Assembly (NCBI RefSeq): GCF_003334765.1
Contig: NZ_QOWT01000022.1
DNA length: 64,000 bases
Strand: one strand, 5' to 3'
Source of the DNA: Escherichia coli
GTDB taxonomy: Bacteria; Pseudomonadota; Gammaproteobacteria; Enterobacterales; Enterobacteriaceae
This document shows positions 1-7,581 of this stretch, one piece after another (position 1 is the first letter of the stretch; each line of letters opens with the position of its first letter). The position numbers were made by a program, and so were the translations under genes. A model generated the notes under the pieces. The model saw only the letters and a list, made by a program, of their open reading frames with translations. It did no database searches and was not told the origin of the DNA.

Positions 1-555
1 GCCGCCTTTCAGGACGCCAGTATGCTGATGCGCATCAACCACAATCCCGTTAGAGCTCATCGCTCCACCGCCCTGGGTAACGCCACCATTGATCACCACT
101 TCGCTGTTAATACGCGTGCGGTCAGCCTCCAGCATAAACTCACTGGTTTTCAGGGTGATATTGTCAGCGGCCTCAATGACCATTGATTTGATGCCCCTGA
201 CATACCAGCGCCCGGTGGCGGGTTCGTATTCAAACCAGCCGCCGTCAGGATGTTCTGTCACGCAGGCGTCCGCCGACGTCGAAGGTGGCGCGAACTGATT
301 CGAATAGATGGCGGGTAACGCAAAGGCGGTTTCCAGATTGCCGCCCAGACTCAGCAGCACCACCTGCTCACCTTCCGATGGTCGCCACCATGTGCGGGCA
401 TTACCCGCGCGCAGCGTCAGCCAGTTAATCCAGTTGGTTTCAAGGTCGCCCGTTTTCACCCGACAAAGCCAGTTTTCCCGGTCCACTTCGGTGACTACAC
501 CTATGCGGATCAGATTGGTGATAAGGCGCATGATTTCGGTTAGTTGTGCGTTCAT
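1..555 (-). CDS. Phage baseplate assembly protein V (gpV-like), N-terminal ~185 codons; 3' end lies beyond the window start
   Basis: Reverse-strand translation from ATG at 555-553 reads MNAQLTEIMRLITNLIRIGVVTEVDRENWLCRVKTGDLETNWINWLTLRAGNARTWWRPSEGEQVV..., typical of P2 gpV; absent from the ORF track because it has no stop in the window. Confidence 0.8.
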   Translation of the reverse strand, partial: MNAQLTEIMRLITNLIRIGVVTEVDRENWLCRVKTGDLETNWINWLTLRAGNARTWWRPSEGEQVVLLSLGGNLETAFALPAIYSNQFAPPSTSADACVTEHPDGGWFEYEPATGRWYVRGIKSMVIEAADNITLKTSEFMLEADRTRINSEVVINGGVTQGGGAMSSNGIVVDAHQHTGVLKGG

Positions 556-658
556 AGATATATGATGACAGCTGAAAACTTGTTTATAACTTCTTGCAAA
601 TTGTGGTATCGATGGTACAAATTGATAAAAGGATAAAAAACAACCAATAGGTGGATAA

Positions 659-1465
659 ATGAGTGTTATGAATCCAATAAGTTCTAATATATTTAATGCT
701 GAATTTTTAAACACCCCGGCAGCGGCACTTGCCGCATGGATTTCCATTATTGGAGCTGTTATAACTTTGGTGACGATAGTTATAAGAGCACTATTCAAAT
801 ATAGAAAATCTCATGATGTAATTTTGAAAAAATCAGGAATACCTGCGTTTATATTGAATTTTTTTCTTATACGAATATCATTAAAAAGGCTGCCTACTAT
901 CACATGGGCTGAAAAATCAATCACGGTTCTCTTTTCACTTCTTTTTTTGTGTGCAATTTATATTTTTGGTCCAGTTTTCATCCAAGCCATTAGAACCCCA
1001 CCAAATAGCACATTGCTTTATTGGATAAAATCCGGTGAATCATTTTATATGTCAAAAAAACTGGCGACTGCAGCTACAATATTAACCACTCCTGATTGGG
1101 AAATATCAAAGGATGATTGCGAAGAGTCATCCTCTGCCAGTACAGAGAAGTACAAATCATTAACTATCGAACATAAAGAAATTCTTTGTAAACTACTAAC
1201 CACTGATGAAGGGAATGCTTACATTGATGAAGAAGTCAAGAATTTCGTTAAAGACAAATTCTTTATCTATTCCTTTGCCCCAACAACCATATTTATTCTA
1301 TTATGGATTTCTTTGGGTTTTATACTGACCATTCACTATTCTAAAAAAGTTAGGAAATATATTCTGACTGAACAAAAAAATGCAATTCATTGGGCATATG
1401 GTGAATTCAAGACAGAAGGAATCTATTCAATATATCAAGAGTTAGAACGTAAGACTCACCATTAA
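659..1465 (+). CDS. Hypothetical polytopic membrane protein (268 aa), AT-rich cargo gene between S and V
   Basis: ORF with GGTGG Shine-Dalgarno 6 nt upstream; several hydrophobic helices; AT-rich; opposite strand to flanking tail genes. Confidence 0.5.
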   Translation: MSVMNPISSNIFNAEFLNTPAAALAAWISIIGAVITLVTIVIRALFKYRKSHDVILKKSGIPAFILNFFLIRISLKRLPTITWAEKSITVLFSLLFLCAIYIFGPVFIQAIRTPPNSTLLYWIKSGESFYMSKKLATAATILTTPDWEISKDDCEESSSASTEKYKSLTIEHKEILCKLLTTDEGNAYIDEEVKNFVKDKFFIYSFAPTTIFILLWISLGFILTIHYSKKVRKYILTEQKNAIHWAYGEFKTEGIYSIYQELERKTHH

Positions 1466-1853
1466 GACCCAACAAACGACGCTCTGCGTAACGCACTTCC
1501 GGTCCTTTGCGGCTGACGCGATCGCGCAGGCCATAATGGTGAACGCGGGCAATGCGCTGCACCTTACCTTCAAACTGCACGCTGGCAGAATCGGCGCTGG
1601 CGGCAGTTTTCAGGTATTTGGTGGTGCGCAGCTTTGCAAACATCTGACGTTTGATGCGGCCTTTTTTACTGCGCGCCGTGACCTTGCGCGGTTCATAACT
1701 GCTGCCATCTGGATTGCGCTGCATCCTGATATTCTGCTGCTGTGTCCGGCGCAGTTCCTGCGCCAGCTGGCGCATCATGCGGCTTCTTGCGACTGGTTCC
1801 AGATTCGCCAGTAAGGCACTAAGCCAGTCGTCCACCTTCTGCAGTTCAGCCAC
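1407..1853 (-). CDS. Phage tail completion / virion morphogenesis protein (gpS-like)
   Basis: 148-aa ORF with the sequence character of the phage virion morphogenesis family; lies between R-like and V as in P2. Confidence 0.7.
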   Translation of the reverse strand: MAELQKVDDWLSALLANLEPVARSRMMRQLAQELRRTQQQNIRMQRNPDGSSYEPRKVTARSKKGRIKRQMFAKLRTTKYLKTAASADSASVQFEGKVQRIARVHHYGLRDRVSRKGPEVRYAERRLLGLNGESYVLTLDILNRFLLS

Positions 1854-2304
1854 GTTTCACCGTCCACATTTCTTCAGGTTCATCGGGTTCTGCTACCGCT
1901 TCAACGCTCGACACACTGCCGTCAGTGCTGACCAGCACACGTTCCGTCAGTTGCAGGTTAAGGCTGATATCACAGACATCGTTGCGCAGAATATCCACCT
2001 CAAAGGTAAATAGTTTTTCCCGTAACGCCGGGTTATTGATGGCATCGGGCTGGTTATCCCGCAGCCACAGCAAAACCGGGGCCATCAGCAGATTCTGGTC
2101 GCCGCTGAAATCCTCAATCACCACGTTCAGGGTGTAACCACGCAGCCCTACGAGTTCACTAAAGGCAGTATCTTTCACCTGATGGAGCCGGACCTGAACC
2201 AGGAAATTTACGGCCTGCCGGAATATCTGTCCGCCATTCCGTCCGCCTTGCTGAACGAGTCCGCTACGCTGTTCCGGCGTAAATACTACATCAATGGCAG
2301 TCAT
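1846..2304 (-). CDS. Phage tail completion protein R-like; N-terminal portion probably not native (antisense to portal-derived sequence)
   Basis: 152-aa ORF; its stop overlaps the S start by 8 nt; its first ~40 codons overlap the portal fragment on the other strand. Confidence 0.5.
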   Translation of the reverse strand: MTAIDVVFTPEQRSGLVQQGGRNGGQIFRQAVNFLVQVRLHQVKDTAFSELVGLRGYTLNVVIEDFSGDQNLLMAPVLLWLRDNQPDAINNPALREKLFTFEVDILRNDVCDISLNLQLTERVLVSTDGSVSSVEAVAEPDEPEEMWTVKRG

Positions 2305-2712
2305 GCAGGGTTCATCATGTATATGACCGACGCCGCGCAGAACCAGGAGGACGTGAACAACATCCGCCAGGCCATGAAAAGCGCTAAAGGACCGGGCAAC
2401 TTCCGCAACCTGTTTATGTATTCACCCAACGGCAAAAAGGACGGGATTCAGATAATCCCGCTGTCAGAGGTAGCGGCAAAGGATGAGTTTCTGAACATTA
2501 AGAACGTGAGCCGAGACGACATGATGGCTGCACACCGCGTTCCGCCGCAGATGATGGGGATTATGCCGAGTAATGTTGGGGGATTTGGGGATGTGGAAAA
2601 GGCGAGTAAGGTGTTTGTCCGTAACGAATTGATACCGCTGCAAAAGCGAATTAAAGAAATTAATGAATGGTTGAGTGATGAAATAATTTCTTTCCAACCA
2701 TATGAATTATAA
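2182..2712 (+). pseudogene. Phage portal protein (gpQ-like) C-terminal fragment; 5' boundary uncertain
   Basis: Translation contains RRKYYINGSHAGF and MMAAHRVPPQMMGIMPSNVGGFGDVEKASKVFVRNELIPLQ, which I recognise as portal C-terminal sequence; far too short for a complete portal. Confidence 0.6.
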
Positions 2713-2733
2713 TAAAGTAGGGCAAATAATGCC

Positions 2734-3591
2734 CTACTTTAACCAAATATTATAATCCAATCTTCCTACGTATCTTGAAAAAACAGCCAGAGCAATTGCT
2801 TGCCCTACACTTGTTAATTCAATTCCTTGATAGTTGCTCTTTGAAAATTTTTCTAAAAATGCAGACACATGAGGGGCAACTAACTTAAGATTTGAAATAT
2901 ATGCACTCTTATCTTTTATATCAGTCGGATATTTACTCATAAAATAGTCTTCAACATCCATCCCTAAAAAAGTATTCCATGAACAAGCCCCTGCATATTG
3001 AATGTGATATATCTGGGCTTGAGACAAATTAAACCCATTAGTATACATTGATTCAAAGTTTCTAAAATTGTGCTCCAACAAATCCAATCGAACACCATTA
3101 ACAGGGTCTTTGATCTCAACATTCTTGAGAAGAAAAACTATCGTTATAAGTGATATTTGTTGCTGTGTTAACTTGGGAACGACGGTAACTGCCTCCGTTA
3201 AAACTATATCTCTAAAATCGTCATTGTTATTGGAGACTCGTTCAACTAACAACTGAGAAAGCACATCCATATTAGCTTTCTTTCCCTTCCTGGCTGATGA
3301 CTTTAATGCCTCAGTCAATGTAGCCTGAACGTCCGGATCGCAAAATTTATCAATAATCAATCTATCAACGTTTTTTGTTAAATCCGAAACGACACGCTCT
3401 TCAAAATCTTTTGCATTCTCTTGAGCTGCAGCATAAGCAACATCTTTCAATTTTGGAAACTGATTTTCGAAGAGAATGTTGAATAGTTCTCTAACCTCGG
3501 AAAACGACATCCCTGAAACATTTACATTATTTCCAGCTTGAATTGCATACGAATTATTACCTATTTGTTGCTTTTGCTTATCACTAAACAT
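2734..3591 (-). CDS. Hypothetical protein (285 aa), AT-rich cargo; second gene of a two-gene module
   Basis: Start is preceded by GGAGGA directly after the stop of the upstream small membrane protein gene; no family recognised. Confidence 0.6.
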   Translation of the reverse strand: MFSDKQKQQIGNNSYAIQAGNNVNVSGMSFSEVRELFNILFENQFPKLKDVAYAAAQENAKDFEERVVSDLTKNVDRLIIDKFCDPDVQATLTEALKSSARKGKKANMDVLSQLLVERVSNNNDDFRDIVLTEAVTVVPKLTQQQISLITIVFLLKNVEIKDPVNGVRLDLLEHNFRNFESMYTNGFNLSQAQIYHIQYAGACSWNTFLGMDVEDYFMSKYPTDIKDKSAYISNLKLVAPHVSAFLEKFSKSNYQGIELTSVGQAIALAVFSRYVGRLDYNIWLK

Positions 3592-3600
3592 ATATCCTCC

Positions 3601-3846
3601 TTATTTTTTATCACCTGTATTTATACAATCAATTTTAATATCACCTCTAGCCTGGACAGCAGTTGAATTATCACCAACTGATTGGCTCATAGAATTATAT
3701 TTATTTTTTGTAGTGATAAGTAATCCAGCTAAAGCGCTAACTGCAGCCAAAAATGCAACAATAGAATCAAAACCAGGATCCATATAAAGCCATAATCCTG
3801 CAATCGATGCCAGCATACATGTAATGACTATTGCAAAAATTTTCAT
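3601..3846 (-). CDS. Small membrane protein (81 aa, two predicted TM helices); first gene of the two-gene cargo module
   Basis: ORF with AGGAG upstream; hydrophobic N-terminal two-thirds, polar C-terminal tail. Confidence 0.55.
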   Translation of the reverse strand: MKIFAIVITCMLASIAGLWLYMDPGFDSIVAFLAAVSALAGLLITTKNKYNSMSQSVGDNSTAVQARGDIKIDCINTGDKK

Positions 3847-3914
3847 AAATTCTCCTTCTAATGGAAGTGGTTATACCGAAAACAATTTCCTTTTACAACC
3901 ACGCACAGCGCGCG

Positions 3915-3940
3915 CTCGTATCCCCGCCACGCCTGCCCGC
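3915..3940 (-). other. Candidate cohesive-end (cos)-like sequence of the P2/186 type
   Basis: Minus strand reads GGCAGGCGTGGCGGGGATA; the GGCGTGGCGGGGA core matches the 186/P2 cos overhang as I recall it, and it sits in a GC-rich island between AT-rich cargo. Confidence 0.3.
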
Positions 3941-3983
3941 TTTGTGTAGTGGTTTTCATGCACCTGCATGACATAAGTAAAAG

Positions 3984-4001
3984 CCCGCCAGAACTGGCGG
4001 G
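3984..4001 (-). terminator. Hairpin plus T-run on the minus strand (possible relic phage terminator beside cos)
   Basis: cccgcca-gaac-tggcggg stem-loop followed on the minus strand by CTTTTACTT. Confidence 0.35.
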
Positions 4002-4151
4002 ACTGAGCAAAAACGATCCTTTTGCGATCATTCATTTTCATGCGCTATAGTCATGCAACAAACGCATACGAACCATATGGTTAGATTACTCATCAAGTCA
4101 GATGGATTTTCAGGCAGATTGCCACAGCAATTGTAAAGGAGCGAGATTGAA

Positions 4152-5153
4152 ATGGGTGGAGAGACTTCGGCTATACAACGAGTCGCGGGTAAGATTTCTG
4201 ATGATATTTTCTCAGTGTTCAAATGGGATCGTGCCGCTAGAGCGGACATGAATTGGGATTGTTGCCAAGAGGCTCATTCCAAGAAAACACATCCAAGCGA
4301 TGTTGTATTTTTCTACATAGATCCATATGAGGAGGAAATGGTCTATCTCAACACAGACCTCAAAAGCTATGCAGAAGGTACTATTGGGAAAAAAATAGTC
4401 GAGGGAGCTTTAACATCGCTTGCTTTAGCTACCGAGTGTGCAAATGTCAGTGAAGAATGGCGATTGAAATATGTTCATGATGATTCTTTAGGTTATAACG
4501 TAAGAGGGTTATTATTCTTATATAACCATGATAATTTATATGATAAAGACTTCTATGAGAATATTACAAAAAAATTAGATCACTCATCTATAAATTGCCC
4601 TCCAAACATCAAACTACATTTGCTTGACCCTTATAAAATATCAGATTTGATAAACATATCTTCTGACATAACTAAGTTAATTGGTTCAGGCAAACTTCCT
4701 CAACCTGATAAGTTCACATATTATTATCCAGATCTTTCCCTAACAAGAATAAAGCACCCTATTAATCAGACAACACCTGCAACAATTGAATTATTAACAT
4801 CACCATACATTATAATAAAGCATGAGGCTTTCAGTTGGCTCAGGGATAAAAACCCTGAGGGATATGTTGTTTATTACAATCAACCGGGGGATTCAGTAGA
4901 CGAATTCGTTTACTTCTTTGATATGTTATCAACTTATCAGATATTAACCGAAGGTAAACCAATCGTATTACGCCATTGTCACATTCACCCAAATGAAAAT
5001 GCCATTCATCATTTTGAAAGAGCGAAAAAGAAATACAGCACAGACTGGCTCTTAGGCGAGGATGAAAGACTTTTTCTTAAAATTGACTTCGACAAGACAG
5101 ACAAAATTGTTGTTGAATATAATCTTGAACAAATCGGCATGGAGCAACGATAA
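4152..5153 (+). CDS. Hypothetical protein (333 aa), gene 1 of a three-gene cargo cassette; possible PD-(D/E)xK-like motif
   Basis: AGGAG upstream; AT-rich; FFYIDPYEEEMVYLNTDLK resembles a hhhD...(D/E)xK nuclease core; no Walker A. Confidence 0.7.
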   Translation: MGGETSAIQRVAGKISDDIFSVFKWDRAARADMNWDCCQEAHSKKTHPSDVVFFYIDPYEEEMVYLNTDLKSYAEGTIGKKIVEGALTSLALATECANVSEEWRLKYVHDDSLGYNVRGLLFLYNHDNLYDKDFYENITKKLDHSSINCPPNIKLHLLDPYKISDLINISSDITKLIGSGKLPQPDKFTYYYPDLSLTRIKHPINQTTPATIELLTSPYIIIKHEAFSWLRDKNPEGYVVYYNQPGDSVDEFVYFFDMLSTYQILTEGKPIVLRHCHIHPNENAIHHFERAKKKYSTDWLLGEDERLFLKIDFDKTDKIVVEYNLEQIGMEQR

Positions 5154-6232
5154 TGGCTAAAAAACTATATTTCGCAACTGATAAAAATATTTATGATGCA
5201 TTACATCATAAAAGGATAACCGCTGCAAAGTTGCATGAATTATTGTTGAATCGAGGTGTGTTTTTATCACCAGAACTCGACAAGGAAATACTAATCGAGG
5301 AAATATCCAAACTTCCTCACGGATTTAATGAATTAGAACACATAAAAAAACTGGTCAAAACATATGACCCAAGGGAAAGCACTACTAGTGTGAGCTTCCA
5401 AACCTCAACAAATCAGGCCGAATTAAAAAGTGCTGCTGAAGCACTAAAAAAAACATGCTCCCCTAGTAAAGGTCAAAGCCTGAATATTGTAGCTAAAAAA
5501 GATGGCTCGCTTACAGTAGAATACAAATATGAAGAAATAGACCTGTCTAAAACTGCATTACGTCAGATCGACAAGCGGAATGTTATAATAGAACTTCGCC
5601 CTGGAGCTGACAAAGTTGAAGTACGTATGCCTCAAAACCCCGAGGCAAAAAAAGTTATTGAGAGCTTGCAAAACGAGCTATCTAAAATCAAGTCCGAACC
5701 TATCGAGCGCTTCGAAATATCATTACTAGCAATAACTGATCCTACATTGCGAAGTCAGTTTTTTCAGGAATTAATGAATGGTCTACGCGGTTATGAGACT
5801 GATGACGTAACAAAAGTCGAATTAAATCGCAGTACTGATGCTAGTGAGGATGAAGACAAGGAAGAAACTATTGATACCGGATTTGTTAAGAAAGCCGTCC
5901 TTAATGGTGAAGGGGTAAATAGTTCAGCTATATTTTCTCAACTACATGAGAAAGGTTATTATATCGGGCGTATTGCATGGTCTTCAAAGCCGACAAGTGG
6001 AATTGGAGACAGAATCAACGTCGAAGCATTTTTCAAAGACTCAGAAAAATGCTGTGACTTTGCCTATCAAATTAAAGGTATAAACAATCAAAAAGAAGAC
6101 GGTTTCAATGTAACCATTCGCGCGGCAACGGCACAAGAGAAAAAACATATTAGTGAATTAATTGAGTCCGCCGCTGAAAATGCCTATAATATAATAATAG
6201 GATCAGAGGTGAACGAAGATGAAAAAGGTTAA
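5153..6232 (+). CDS. Hypothetical protein (359 aa), gene 2 of the three-gene cassette
   Basis: ATG overlaps the gene 1 stop (TAATG at 5151-5155); GGAG 8 nt upstream; acidic patch SEDEDKEE; no recognisable family. Confidence 0.7.
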   Translation: MAKKLYFATDKNIYDALHHKRITAAKLHELLLNRGVFLSPELDKEILIEEISKLPHGFNELEHIKKLVKTYDPRESTTSVSFQTSTNQAELKSAAEALKKTCSPSKGQSLNIVAKKDGSLTVEYKYEEIDLSKTALRQIDKRNVIIELRPGADKVEVRMPQNPEAKKVIESLQNELSKIKSEPIERFEISLLAITDPTLRSQFFQELMNGLRGYETDDVTKVELNRSTDASEDEDKEETIDTGFVKKAVLNGEGVNSSAIFSQLHEKGYYIGRIAWSSKPTSGIGDRINVEAFFKDSEKCCDFAYQIKGINNQKEDGFNVTIRAATAQEKKHISELIESAAENAYNIIIGSEVNEDEKG

Positions 6233-6902
6233 ATGGCTTAAGTTAAACATACGGCTTGAGTTTGAAACAGCCGTTAGACGTCTTTCTCTTGATTCTTTTA
6301 CAGAGGATAAAGGGAAAGGGTTCATTTTTGATAAAATACGCCATGATTTTGCAAATGGTCGCTTTGTCGAGCGTATTGTTTATCATGATAAAATATTAAG
6401 CTTTGACGGAAGCGAAACTACCGTTGAAAGAATCGAATATCGCACCACAAATTTTAGCGTGGCTTTAGACTCTCTTCCTGTAATGCAGATTACTAACCCA
6501 CCCAGAACTTTAAAGCCTTTTTCGCAGGCTTTGGTAAAAAATCTTGGCTTAGGTGTTAGTTTGGAAGAAATTGACATAAACCCTATAGACTGGCTTAATG
6601 AAATATCTTCAAGTGTAAATATCAATTTAACACAACTTGATATTTCAAGGGTTAGAGTTTCTGATTACGCCACAGCTAAAATGCAAATAATTGGCAGCAA
6701 TGATCTTAGGAAGTATTATAAAGAAGAATTAGAGGGTAAAAAAATAAGAATTGACAGGCTTGTTTGCTCTGTTAATTCATTAGAATATTCCGGTAAGCTC
6801 AAGATCACCAATAGCGGCCTTGCTTATATTGATGTTAGAAATGAGAATGAGTTTACGAAAATCGTTTTTGATACGTTAAAAAAAGTCACCCTTCAATCAT
6901 AG
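6219..6902 (+). CDS. Hypothetical protein (227 aa), gene 3 of the three-gene cassette
   Basis: Start lies 14 nt inside the end of gene 2 (translational coupling); GAGGTG upstream; no recognisable family. Confidence 0.65.
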   Translation: MKKVKWLKLNIRLEFETAVRRLSLDSFTEDKGKGFIFDKIRHDFANGRFVERIVYHDKILSFDGSETTVERIEYRTTNFSVALDSLPVMQITNPPRTLKPFSQALVKNLGLGVSLEEIDINPIDWLNEISSSVNINLTQLDISRVRVSDYATAKMQIIGSNDLRKYYKEELEGKKIRIDRLVCSVNSLEYSGKLKITNSGLAYIDVRNENEFTKIVFDTLKKVTLQS

Positions 6903-6958
6903 ATGGCTTATAAGGAGTTACTTCACCTAACGCCTCGCCTTACTCGTTGTTCAACCTC

Positions 6959-6989
6959 GTAGGCGTCAGAATCAAGTTCTGACGCCTAC
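6959..6989. terminator. Perfect 13-bp inverted repeat hairpin between the cassette and the convergent DinI-like gene
   Basis: gtaggcgtcagaa-tcaag-ttctgacgcctac; no strong T-run on either side, so function as a terminator is uncertain. Confidence 0.35.
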
Positions 6990-6997
6990 AATGTTTC

Positions 6998-7231
6998 TTA
7001 ATGCAGCCAGCTATCGTCCTCCCAGACCTGCTGCATTATTTCCATCACTCGCTTTTTGTCTTCATCCAGTTTTAACCCGCTCAGCTCAACGCCATTGGCG
7101 CTGCCCTTACGGATACGAATTGCTGTTTTGGGATACAGAGGGCGCAAATTACGGTAAAGCTCGGATTCAAGGGCGTCCAGGGTAGACTGGCTAATCTTCT
7201 GCTCTTTATCGATCATTATTTCAATGCGCAT
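6998..7231 (-). CDS. DinI-like protein (77 aa from the MRIEIM start), resembling the C-terminal part of a 186 Tum-type module
   Basis: MRIEIMIDKEQKISQSTLDALESELYRNLRPLYPKTAIRI...VWEDDSWLH resembles DinI; the track ORF (7303 start) is probably over-extended. Confidence 0.6.
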   Translation of the reverse strand: MRIEIMIDKEQKISQSTLDALESELYRNLRPLYPKTAIRIRKGSANGVELSGLKLDEDKKRVMEIMQQVWEDDSWLH

Positions 7232-7241
7232 AAAAGCCACC

Positions 7242-7430
7242 TCAGCTGATGACATCCATTGAGCGGTTGTATTCGTGGGTTCTGATTTTTGCCATGAGTT
7301 CATCTGTCAGTTCAGAAACCCACTGCAGAGCCAGCCCCTTCTCTTCATCACTACACTCACTAGCCGCTACAAGCTTAAGAAAAAAATCAATGCGCTGGAG
7401 CTTCAAAGACTCCAAAAAATAGTCCTGCAT
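7242..7430 (-). CDS. Small protein (62 aa), first gene after the LexA-controlled promoter; possible Tum-like antirepressor part
   Basis: AGGAGG 4 nt upstream of the ATG; directly downstream of the LexA box; different frame and overlapping the DinI-like ORF. Confidence 0.4.
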   Translation of the reverse strand: MQDYFLESLKLQRIDFFLKLVAASECSDEEKGLALQWVSELTDELMAKIRTHEYNRSMDVIS

Positions 7431-7471
7431 CTTTCCTCCTATGACACCAAAGCAACACTGTATACATAACC

Positions 7472-7489
7472 ACTGTTTGTATTTACAGT
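7472..7489 (-). promoter_or_regulatory. LexA operator (SOS box) overlapping the -10 of a strong promoter for the Tum/DinI-like genes
   Basis: aCTGT-ttgtattt-ACAGta, a perfect CTGT-N8-ACAG; on the minus strand TTTACA (-35) and TATACT (-10) flank it. Confidence 0.7.
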
Positions 7490-7581
7490 ATATAATAATA
7501 TTACTGATGTAAAACGTTTTTTACGTTCATCAGCCTGATATGCCTGGTATTATTAAGAGCACGAATTGTTAACCTGCGTAA

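Follow-up and report, generated by a model that had tools for sequence, protein, structure and literature searches.

A colicin-like candidate LexA operator upstream of split tumA/tumB genes in a Fels-2/PSP3-type prophage of Escherichia coli that lacks head and lysis genes

INTRODUCTION

The SOS control of prophage induction by an antirepressor is textbook knowledge for phage 186. The Tum protein of 186 is a LexA-controlled anti-CI factor that sequesters the CI repressor (PMC7708051), and its anti-CI activity is also described by Lemire et al. (PMC3121763). In the 186 record the p95 promoter of tum reads TTCACA-18-TACTGT, with a LexA site beginning at the -10 hexamer. 186 Tum is a single protein of 146 aa with a DinI-like C-terminal half. 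In other members of the family the two parts are carried by two genes, and this split into an antirepressor and a DinI-like protein is described explicitly by Lemire et al. (PMC3121763). The PSP3 record gives tumA as 'similar to 5' end 186 tum; UV induction of prophage' and tumB as 'similar to dinI and 3' end of 186 tum'. The switch has also been validated genetically in E. coli. In the Phollow study the tum gene of DuoHS, a prophage of E. coli HS, was deleted in frame, and delta-tum and lexA(Ind-) each abolish mitomycin C-induced lysis and viral foci (PMC12055606). [quoted passage not shown]

Here we analyse a 64,000-nt stretch of Escherichia coli DNA (the window). It contains the SOS operon of a phage of the Fels-2/PSP3 type, within the P2/186 family (Peduoviridae). 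An SOS-controlled tum operon in this family is already known and ordinary. What is new here is a second LexA box that overlaps the first to form a tandem operator, and a cos site that persists in a prophage without head genes. A description of a tandem operator at tum was not found in the literature searched.

RESULTS

The module carries a tumA-type antirepressor gene and a DinI-like gene

The module is on the minus strand at the end of the early region, before cos, in the order gene A (9996–7582), tum module (7513–6998) and cos (3933–3915). Its genes and ribosome-binding sites are as follows.

7582–9996, minus strand: replication gene A (804 aa), directly upstream of the module; called 'replication endonuclease' in strains H3 and HS
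7435–7440, minus strand: Shine-Dalgarno sequence AGGAGG of tumA, near-invariant in 68 distinct relatives
7242–7430, minus strand: tumA-type antirepressor gene (ORF62, 62 aa), assigned by orthology to DuoHS Tum and Fels-2 STM2728
7237–7243, minus strand: Shine-Dalgarno sequence GAGGTGG for the DinI-like gene; it overlaps the stop codon of tumA
6998–7231, minus strand: tumB, DinI-family gene (77 aa), assigned by Pfam PF06183

The 62-aa ORF with a strong Shine-Dalgarno sequence that an earlier note on this DNA had reported is found as ORF62, read from 7430 to 7242 with AGGAGG at 7440–7435. Its product is identical in 61 of 62 residues to Tum of DuoHS (ECHS_RS04495 / EcHS_A0919) and is 98% identical to Fels-2 STM2728. 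The primers published for the delta-tum deletion, ATAGGAGGAAAGATG and TGAGGTGACTTTTATGCGCATTG, fit the same gene; the match is exact at the ORF62 start and has one mismatch at the stop and DinI-like start, where deletion primer NHR28 (PMC11195241) matches 7222–7244. On these grounds we assign ORF62 as the orthologue of the experimentally validated Tum antirepressor.

The relationship to 186 Tum is more distant. Pairwise BLASTP gives no alignment between ORF62 and 186 Tum, so the link between them rests on profiles, synteny and literature. ORF62 belongs to phrog_698, and residues 7–44 of 186 Tum also match phrog_698 (E=2.7e-5); phrog_8554 and phrog_1993 are matched by both proteins as well. Alignment of the ORF62 family with 186 Tum(1–70) and PSP3 TumA by hhalign pairs residues 5–46 with 5–47 (E=4.5e-5), and in the aligned profiles a Cys is invariant and the motif (I/L)A(L/I) is conserved. 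ORF62 falls in no Pfam family, and NCBIfam returns noise only. The AlphaFold2 model of ORF62 is a two-helix hairpin with pLDDT 89; a Foldseek search of the PDB with this model returns generic helical hairpins only, all with E>1. In RefSeq and phage records this 62-aa gene is labelled 'hypothetical protein' and occasionally 'levan regulatory protein', yet it is a Tum antirepressor by the above assignment, which is of use for annotation.

The neighbouring DinI-like ORF was correctly recognized in the earlier reading. Residues 14–76 of TumB cover positions 1–63 of the 63-position PF06183 model with E=3.9e-24. TumB is 41% identical to residues 71–145 of 186 Tum and matches E. coli DinI (PDB 1ghh) with E=6.6e-9. 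Against NF007893, the NCBIfam equivalog model of DinI, it scores 51.6 bits where the cut-off is 111, and since it is under the equivalog cut-off TumB is a phage DinI-like paralogue and not dinI itself. From this family membership, TumB most likely modulates RecA.

The two-gene layout is conserved and does not result from a frameshift

The two ORFs had been described as lying in different frames and overlapping. The frames are indeed different; the overlap exists only with the longest DinI-like ORF, which starts at ATG 7303. In all annotated relatives the start of the DinI-like gene corresponds to ATG 7231, which in the window follows the ORF62 stop by 10 nt, and from this start the two genes are adjacent. 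We considered whether a frameshift has cut a 186-like tum gene into these two ORFs, leaving a pseudogene in a decaying prophage. The single 146-aa Tum of 186, the different frames in the window and the degradation elsewhere in this prophage are in line with this reading. However, the split layout, with a gap of 10–12 nt and a separate Shine-Dalgarno sequence, is annotated in Fels-2, SopEPhi, Yersinia phage MLG42, Klebsiella phage ST437-OXA245phi4.1 (phi4.1), E. coli HS and E. coli H3, and PSP3 has the same arrangement with a gap of 3 nt. The 701-nt module is present in 1125 of 5426 complete E. coli genomes and in 67 phage records; 1077 of these genomes carry the two-gene layout at a query coverage of at least 80%. 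DuoHS, with its split layout, can be fully induced, and the small ORF is required for this (PMC12055606), and even the 186 record annotates the DinI-like part with a separate internal start.

Protein families give the same picture. Among the 120 database proteins closest to ORF62, all are short. The ORF62 family has 66 members among the 1.8 billion representative proteins of one library, mostly short (35–133 aa) with two longer outliers, and a fusion of about 146 aa that matches ORF62 from its N-terminus does not occur in this library. Only close relatives of 186 have the fused Tum. Together with the published account of the split (PMC3121763), these comparisons refute a single frameshifted tum gene, a possibility that the earlier note had raised and to which we give next to no credence. 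The two ORFs are a conserved tumA/tumB arrangement, shared by PSP3, Fels-2, SopEPhi, DuoHS and about 1100 E. coli genomes.

Two overlapping LexA boxes lie at the tum promoter

On the minus strand, 151 nt separate the stop of the 804-aa ORF (7582–9996) from the next ATG, and this gap holds the promoter and the LexA box.

7508–7513, minus strand: -35 hexamer TTTACA, placed by sequence and conservation in the tum promoter, which corresponds to p95 of 186
7485–7492, minus strand: -10 region, TATACTGT, read as TATACT (7492–7487, 15-nt spacer) or TACTGT (7490–7485, 17-nt spacer)
7473–7488, read on the minus strand from 7488 to 7473: LexA box 1, CTGTAAATACAAACAG, a perfect CTGT-N8-ACAG
7458–7473, directly after box 1: LexA box 2, GTGGTTATGTATACAG, degenerate, with G7473 common to both boxes

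A perfect CTGT-N8-ACAG box that overlaps the -10 element had been proposed at 7473–7488, and it is present there. We give the quality of a LexA box as the number of mismatches to the 20-mer consensus, and box 1, as the 20-mer TACTGTAAATACAAACAGTG, has 4. The motif by itself carries little information. The window has two copies of the bare CTGT-N8-ACAG where chance predicts 0.52, and at least as many were seen in 8 of 100 shuffles, so that the count alone is non-significant. The other copy is at 7123–7138 inside the DinI-like gene. It is absent in E. coli HS, Fels-2, phi4.1, PSP3 and 186, and we rejected it as a second operator since it is unconserved in relatives; because of this loss we regard it as a by-product of the coding sequence.

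Conservation is much more informative. Per-column conservation among 68 close relatives is too uniform to act as a footprint; the informative set is one of nine diverged phages. It consists of the window, Fels-2, SopEPhi, MLG42, phi4.1, ESSI2_ev015, Cronobacter phage ESSI-2, PSP3 and 186, and from each we extracted the sequence upstream of the homologous small ORF. A perfect CTGT-N8-ACAG is found at the same place upstream of the tum homologue in all nine, preceded by TATA or GCTA, while the flanks of the box have diverged beyond recognition or alignment. TTTACA or TTCACA is located 15–16 nt upstream of TATACT or GCTACT in eight of the nine phages, and PSP3 has TTCCCA.

Box 2 starts on the last base pair of box 1. 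The exact 31-nt double-box pattern occurs once in the window, with 0.01 expected by chance, and 76 of 91 fetched loci have it at the corresponding position, among them Fels-2, SopEPhi, MLG42, phi4.1 and HS. Only a single LexA box is present in 186, PSP3 and the ESSI-2 group. As judged from sequence, boxes 1 and 2 form a colicin-type tandem operator in which two 16-bp boxes overlap by one bp. LexA is predicted to bind at exactly these two boxes. By analogy with the colicins, we expect two LexA dimers to repress the tum promoter tightly and cooperatively.

The two promoter hexamers that had been proposed, TATACT and TTTACA, are also present on the minus strand, and their pairing is less certain than was supposed. 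A consensus promoter scan gave no call at tum. The spacer of the TTTACA/TATACT pair is 15 nt, and the scanner demands 16–18 nt. If the annotated p95 promoter of 186 is taken as a guide, TTTACA-17-TACTGT is equally likely, and the choice between TATACT and TACTGT is ambiguous. LexA box 1 covers either candidate hexamer.

The LexA box could in principle be a chance match in AT-rich intergenic DNA, with both ORFs expressed constitutively or by read-through from gene A. The unremarkable motif count, the fortuitous copy inside the DinI-like gene and the promoter missed by the scan would all fit with this. It is not easily reconciled with a box position kept in nine phages with unalignable flanks, nor with an expectation of 0.01 for the double-box pattern. 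Furthermore, the orthologous DuoHS prophage shows LexA-dependent induction (PMC12055606), and in 186 the p95 promoter is annotated as LexA-repressed (PMC7708051). We consider a chance match exceedingly improbable, and keep to a LexA-controlled tum promoter.

The prophage keeps its repressor, early operon and cos site and has lost its head and lysis genes

The features of the prophage that bear on the switch are listed below.

12974–13630, plus strand: 186-type CI repressor, presumed target of Tum; probable start near 13061, giving 189 aa
3915–3933, minus strand: cos site, GGCGTGGCGGGGATACGAG, identical to the annotated 186 cos at 15 of 19 positions; the same 19-mer is present in DuoHS, and the flanks align
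2131–2138: deletion junction, from blastn of the window against strains H3 and HS

The window prophage had been described as one without head genes that keeps CI, integrase and gene A, and this description holds. A deletion runs from gene Q to gene R. Compared with H3, the closest complete genome, the 5' part of portal gene Q, the terminase, scaffold, capsid and small terminase genes and the 5' part of tail gene R are missing; compared with intact DuoHS, the holin, lysozyme and spanin genes are missing in addition. Still open are the reading frames for integrase, CI and the early operon, as are those of the Dam methylase gene and gene A. DuoHS is integrated at the same site as the window prophage, between rcdA and ybjL. 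The deletion junction was found in none of 5426 complete E. coli genomes, which argues that the deletion is private and probably recent.

The CI protein is a full-length homologue of 186 CI, 33% identical over 175 residues (E=3e-38). It is 87% identical to the CI of DuoHS, and the differences are in the N-terminal half. Because of these two values, 33% to 186 and 87% to DuoHS, the specificity of Tum for CI in this element is assumed. We located cos by aligning the window with the HS prophage and with the cos annotated in 186; a P2 cos sequence gave no match within 3 mismatches. A search of positions 1–16000 against Rfam returned nothing.

The neighbouring cassette is convergent to the tum operon

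Between the tum operon and cos lies a cassette on the opposite strand.

4152–6902, plus strand: three-gene candidate anti-phage system Hp1, Hp2 and Hp3, cargo in the gpA-gpQ hotspot, called by PADLOC
6959–6989: hairpin with a 14-bp stem between the convergent tum and Hp1–Hp3 operons, with a T-run on the plus-strand side only

The PADLOC matches are full-length for Hp1, Hp2 and Hp3, with E=1e-239, 3e-248 and 2e-157, respectively. We take Hp1–Hp3 to be the '3HP' candidate defence system. The hairpin is probably a terminator, and the tum transcript presumably ends there. The hotspot in which the cassette lies was defined by Rousset et al. (PMC9122126).

The earlier note had suggested that the SOS promoter may derepress this adjacent cargo, so that DNA damage would switch accessory genes on. 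There is a precedent in 186, where, according to its record, the p95 transcript partly reads through terminator t95a into the accessory gene orf97, and orf97 expressed from a plasmid blocks 186 infection. The arrangement in the window is against it. Hp1–Hp3 are on the opposite strand, convergent and separated from tum by the hairpin, and for these reasons they are not an output of the tum promoter. The minus-strand ORFs at 3846–2734 are beyond both the Hp operon and cos, and read-through from tum would at most be antisense to Hp3. We regard SOS control of the cargo as very unlikely; the operon that we assign to this promoter is tumA–tumB.

DISCUSSION

A proposed SOS switch acting on the 186-type CI repressor

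The earlier proposal of a LexA-controlled SOS module with Tum-like and DinI-like genes in a 186-like prophage is borne out by the near-identity of ORF62 to DuoHS Tum and by a LexA box conserved in nine phages. On sequence grounds the identity of the module is secure; that it operates in this element is extrapolated from near-identical, genetically tested relatives. Very probably, a LexA-repressed tandem operator controls a TumA/TumB switch that acts on the 186-type CI of this prophage. In an undamaged cell LexA would occupy the tandem operator, box 1 covering the -10 region and box 2 the transcript start, and both boxes together would shut the promoter just after replication gene A. After DNA damage, RecA-stimulated self-cleavage of LexA would allow the promoter to fire and produce a bicistronic message. 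TumA, predicted to be a helical hairpin of 62 aa, would bind the 186-type CI and hold it off its operators, and loss of CI from the operators would turn on the early lytic operon from the Apl/Cox-like gene through gene A. TumB would most likely affect the strength or duration of the SOS signal through its effect on RecA. For this element, Tum–CI binding, the function of TumB and the way in which induction would end after the deletion are all expectations drawn from relatives and gene content. Induction of this prophage would lead to excision, replication and early-gene expression with no virions and no lysis; such an abortive induction is expected because the portal, terminase, capsid and lysis genes are missing.

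For the strain, the prediction is that DNA damage still derepresses a prophage that is incapable of lysis or of making particles. Its excision and replication, together with expression of Fil-type early genes, may influence the fitness of the strain after exposure to a genotoxic antibiotic. The colicin-like double operator points to a switch that is firmly closed and opens only under a sustained SOS signal.

Could the module have been co-opted?

The module is intact in sequence although the head and lysis genes are gone, and cos, int, the early operon and gene A are kept as well. This may indicate co-option, in which TumB tunes the host SOS response as a DinI protein, or TumA works in trans on Fels-2-type phages that share the cell or enter it, or triggers helper-dependent mobilisation of the cos-bearing element. 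There is some support from elsewhere. Trans-acting LexA-controlled antirepressors are documented in Salmonella (PMC3121763), and tum is the most highly expressed transcript of BTP5, a P2-like prophage that yielded no infectious phage (PMC7067206). However, with the junction absent from all 5426 complete genomes the deletion is probably recent and private, and retention of the module then needs no selective explanation. We consider co-option unlikely.

A broader and speculative proposal is that the operator shared by tum and the colicins is a portable 'tight-off, late-on' SOS cassette of Col plasmids and P2-family phages, and that the prophage is an SOS-triggered, helper-dependent mobilisable unit or a trans-inducer of co-resident Fels-2-type prophages. 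We think that this is rather unlikely. If true, the headless and lysis-less element would be no dead relic.

Comparison with known systems

The p95-tum region of 186 resembles the window in most respects. In both, the operon comes directly after gene A, the LexA box begins at the -10 TACTGT and the repressor is a 186-type CI. The N-terminal antirepressor segment is homologous at profile level, and the DinI-like C-terminal part shows the 41% identity given above. There are three differences. 186 has one fused Tum of 146 aa, for which internal starts are also annotated, whereas the window has two genes in different frames; 186 has one LexA box, whereas the window has two that overlap; and the 186 operon runs on into orf97, whereas that of the window meets a convergent defence cassette.

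The closest layouts are those of PSP3 tumA/tumB, Fels-2 STM2728/STM2726.1 and DuoHS tum, all with the split pair of an antirepressor and a DinI-like protein. Fels-2 and DuoHS have the same tandem operator as the window, whereas PSP3 has a single LexA box and a gap of only 3 nt between the genes. The phage genome in the Fels-2 record is complete, and PSP3 and DuoHS are both complete and inducible; unlike these, the window prophage lacks the Q-to-R genes, including those for lysis. The cargo in the gpA-gpQ hotspot differs among the window, PSP3, Fels-2 and DuoHS.

The operator itself resembles those of colicin and klebicin operons on ColE1-type plasmids, in which two 16-bp boxes also share one G and box 2 begins with GTGG, not CTGT. 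The operator of the pCKO3 bacteriocin is identical to that of the window at 33 of 39 positions and to that of Fels-2 at 36 of 39, and a 40-mer of the Fels-2 operator matches 1187 plasmid records. In pCKO3 the match is 43 nt upstream of a colicin-like tRNase bacteriocin gene, which is followed by immunity and lysis genes. Unlike the tum operator, the colicin operators drive bacteriocin, immunity and lysis genes, and the colicin -10 element is upstream of the boxes.

The logic of the switch is shared with the antirepressor operons of the Gifsy and Fels-1 prophages (GfoA/GftA) and with AntC of N15, in which LexA represses an antirepressor of a repressor that is not cleaved and a dinI homologue is in the same operon (PMC3121763). 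In those operons dinI comes first, so the gene order is reversed, and they belong to lambdoid phages with a repressor of another family. The chromosomal DinI of E. coli (PDB 1ghh) and TumB are in the same Pfam family and have a similar length and an acidic C-terminus; they differ in that TumB, below the equivalog cut-off, is a phage paralogue.

Deletion junction and cos site

The prophage lacks its head genes through a deletion that reaches from the portal gene into the tail genes.
~2131-2138, deletion junction, where the surviving 3' part of portal gene Q meets a remnant of tail gene R
3915-3933, minus strand, cos, GGCGTGGCGGGGATACGAG, located by comparison with DuoHS and the annotated 186 cos

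A search of 5426 complete E. coli genomes found the Q-R junction in none. In the nearest relatives, strain H3 for example, the deletion is smaller and nested, and extends from gpM to lysC. The headless prophage still has its cos, which is the same as that of the functional DuoHS prophage of strain HS and identical to the annotated 186 cos at 15 of 19 positions; conserved flanks span about 150 nt (3908-4056).

Accessory genes

659-1465, plus strand, 268-aa ORF (DUF6216 in the H3 annotation), inserted between tail genes S and V
2734-3846, minus strand, 81-aa ORF and LPO_1073/Vpar_1526-family protein, between cos and the portal remnant
4152-6902, plus strand, Hp1/Hp2/Hp3 three-gene operon, matched full-length by PADLOC

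The Hp1/Hp2/Hp3 operon, a candidate anti-phage system, sits in the gpA-gpQ hotspot; Hp2 also matches the NCBIfam antiphage family GapS4b weakly (E=2e-5, far below the cut-off). The genes at 2734-3846 have no PADLOC match and are a second accessory cassette of unassigned function. The 268-aa ORF, on the strand opposite to the flanking tail genes and absent from DuoHS, looks like a moron.

Immunity region

11716-13088, N-terminal half of the CI repressor, Apl/Cox-like gene and cII

Compared with strains H3 and HS, this region is only 88-90% identical while its flanks reach 95-99%, and the prophage and DuoHS have identical C-terminal halves of CI. This pattern suggests that the prophage differs in immunity or operator specificity.

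Tum family and tum operator

Public records name homologues of the Tum orthologue ORF62 (7242-7430) "hypothetical protein", and a few say "levan regulatory (domain) protein". The latter name is backed by no profile library, and the Tum family is therefore systematically under-annotated. Two Peduoviridae phages, ESSI2_ev015 (L087) and ESSI-2 (L088), carry a LexA box and a Tum-like ORF of 70-74 aa with 37-43% identity to ORF62. Judged from these sequences, the DinI moiety would be dispensable for the tum architecture, since neither phage has a DinI-like gene downstream of the Tum-like ORF.

A second exact CTGT-N8-ACAG lies within the DinI-like gene, where it arises from codons for L-Y-P-K-T.
7123-7138, minus strand, CTGTATCCCAAAACAG

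It is common to the window, SopEPhi and MLG42, and is probably fortuitous because it is lost in HS, Fels-2, phi4.1, PSP3 and 186.

The tum operator itself (7458-7488) consists of two candidate LexA boxes in tandem, overlapping by 1 base, whereas the LexA box is single in 186, PSP3 and ESSI-2-type phages. Colicin and klebicin promoters on >1000 ColE1-type plasmids carry a nearly identical double SOS box, which matches the tum operator of the window at 33 of 39 positions and that of Fels-2 at 36 of 39.
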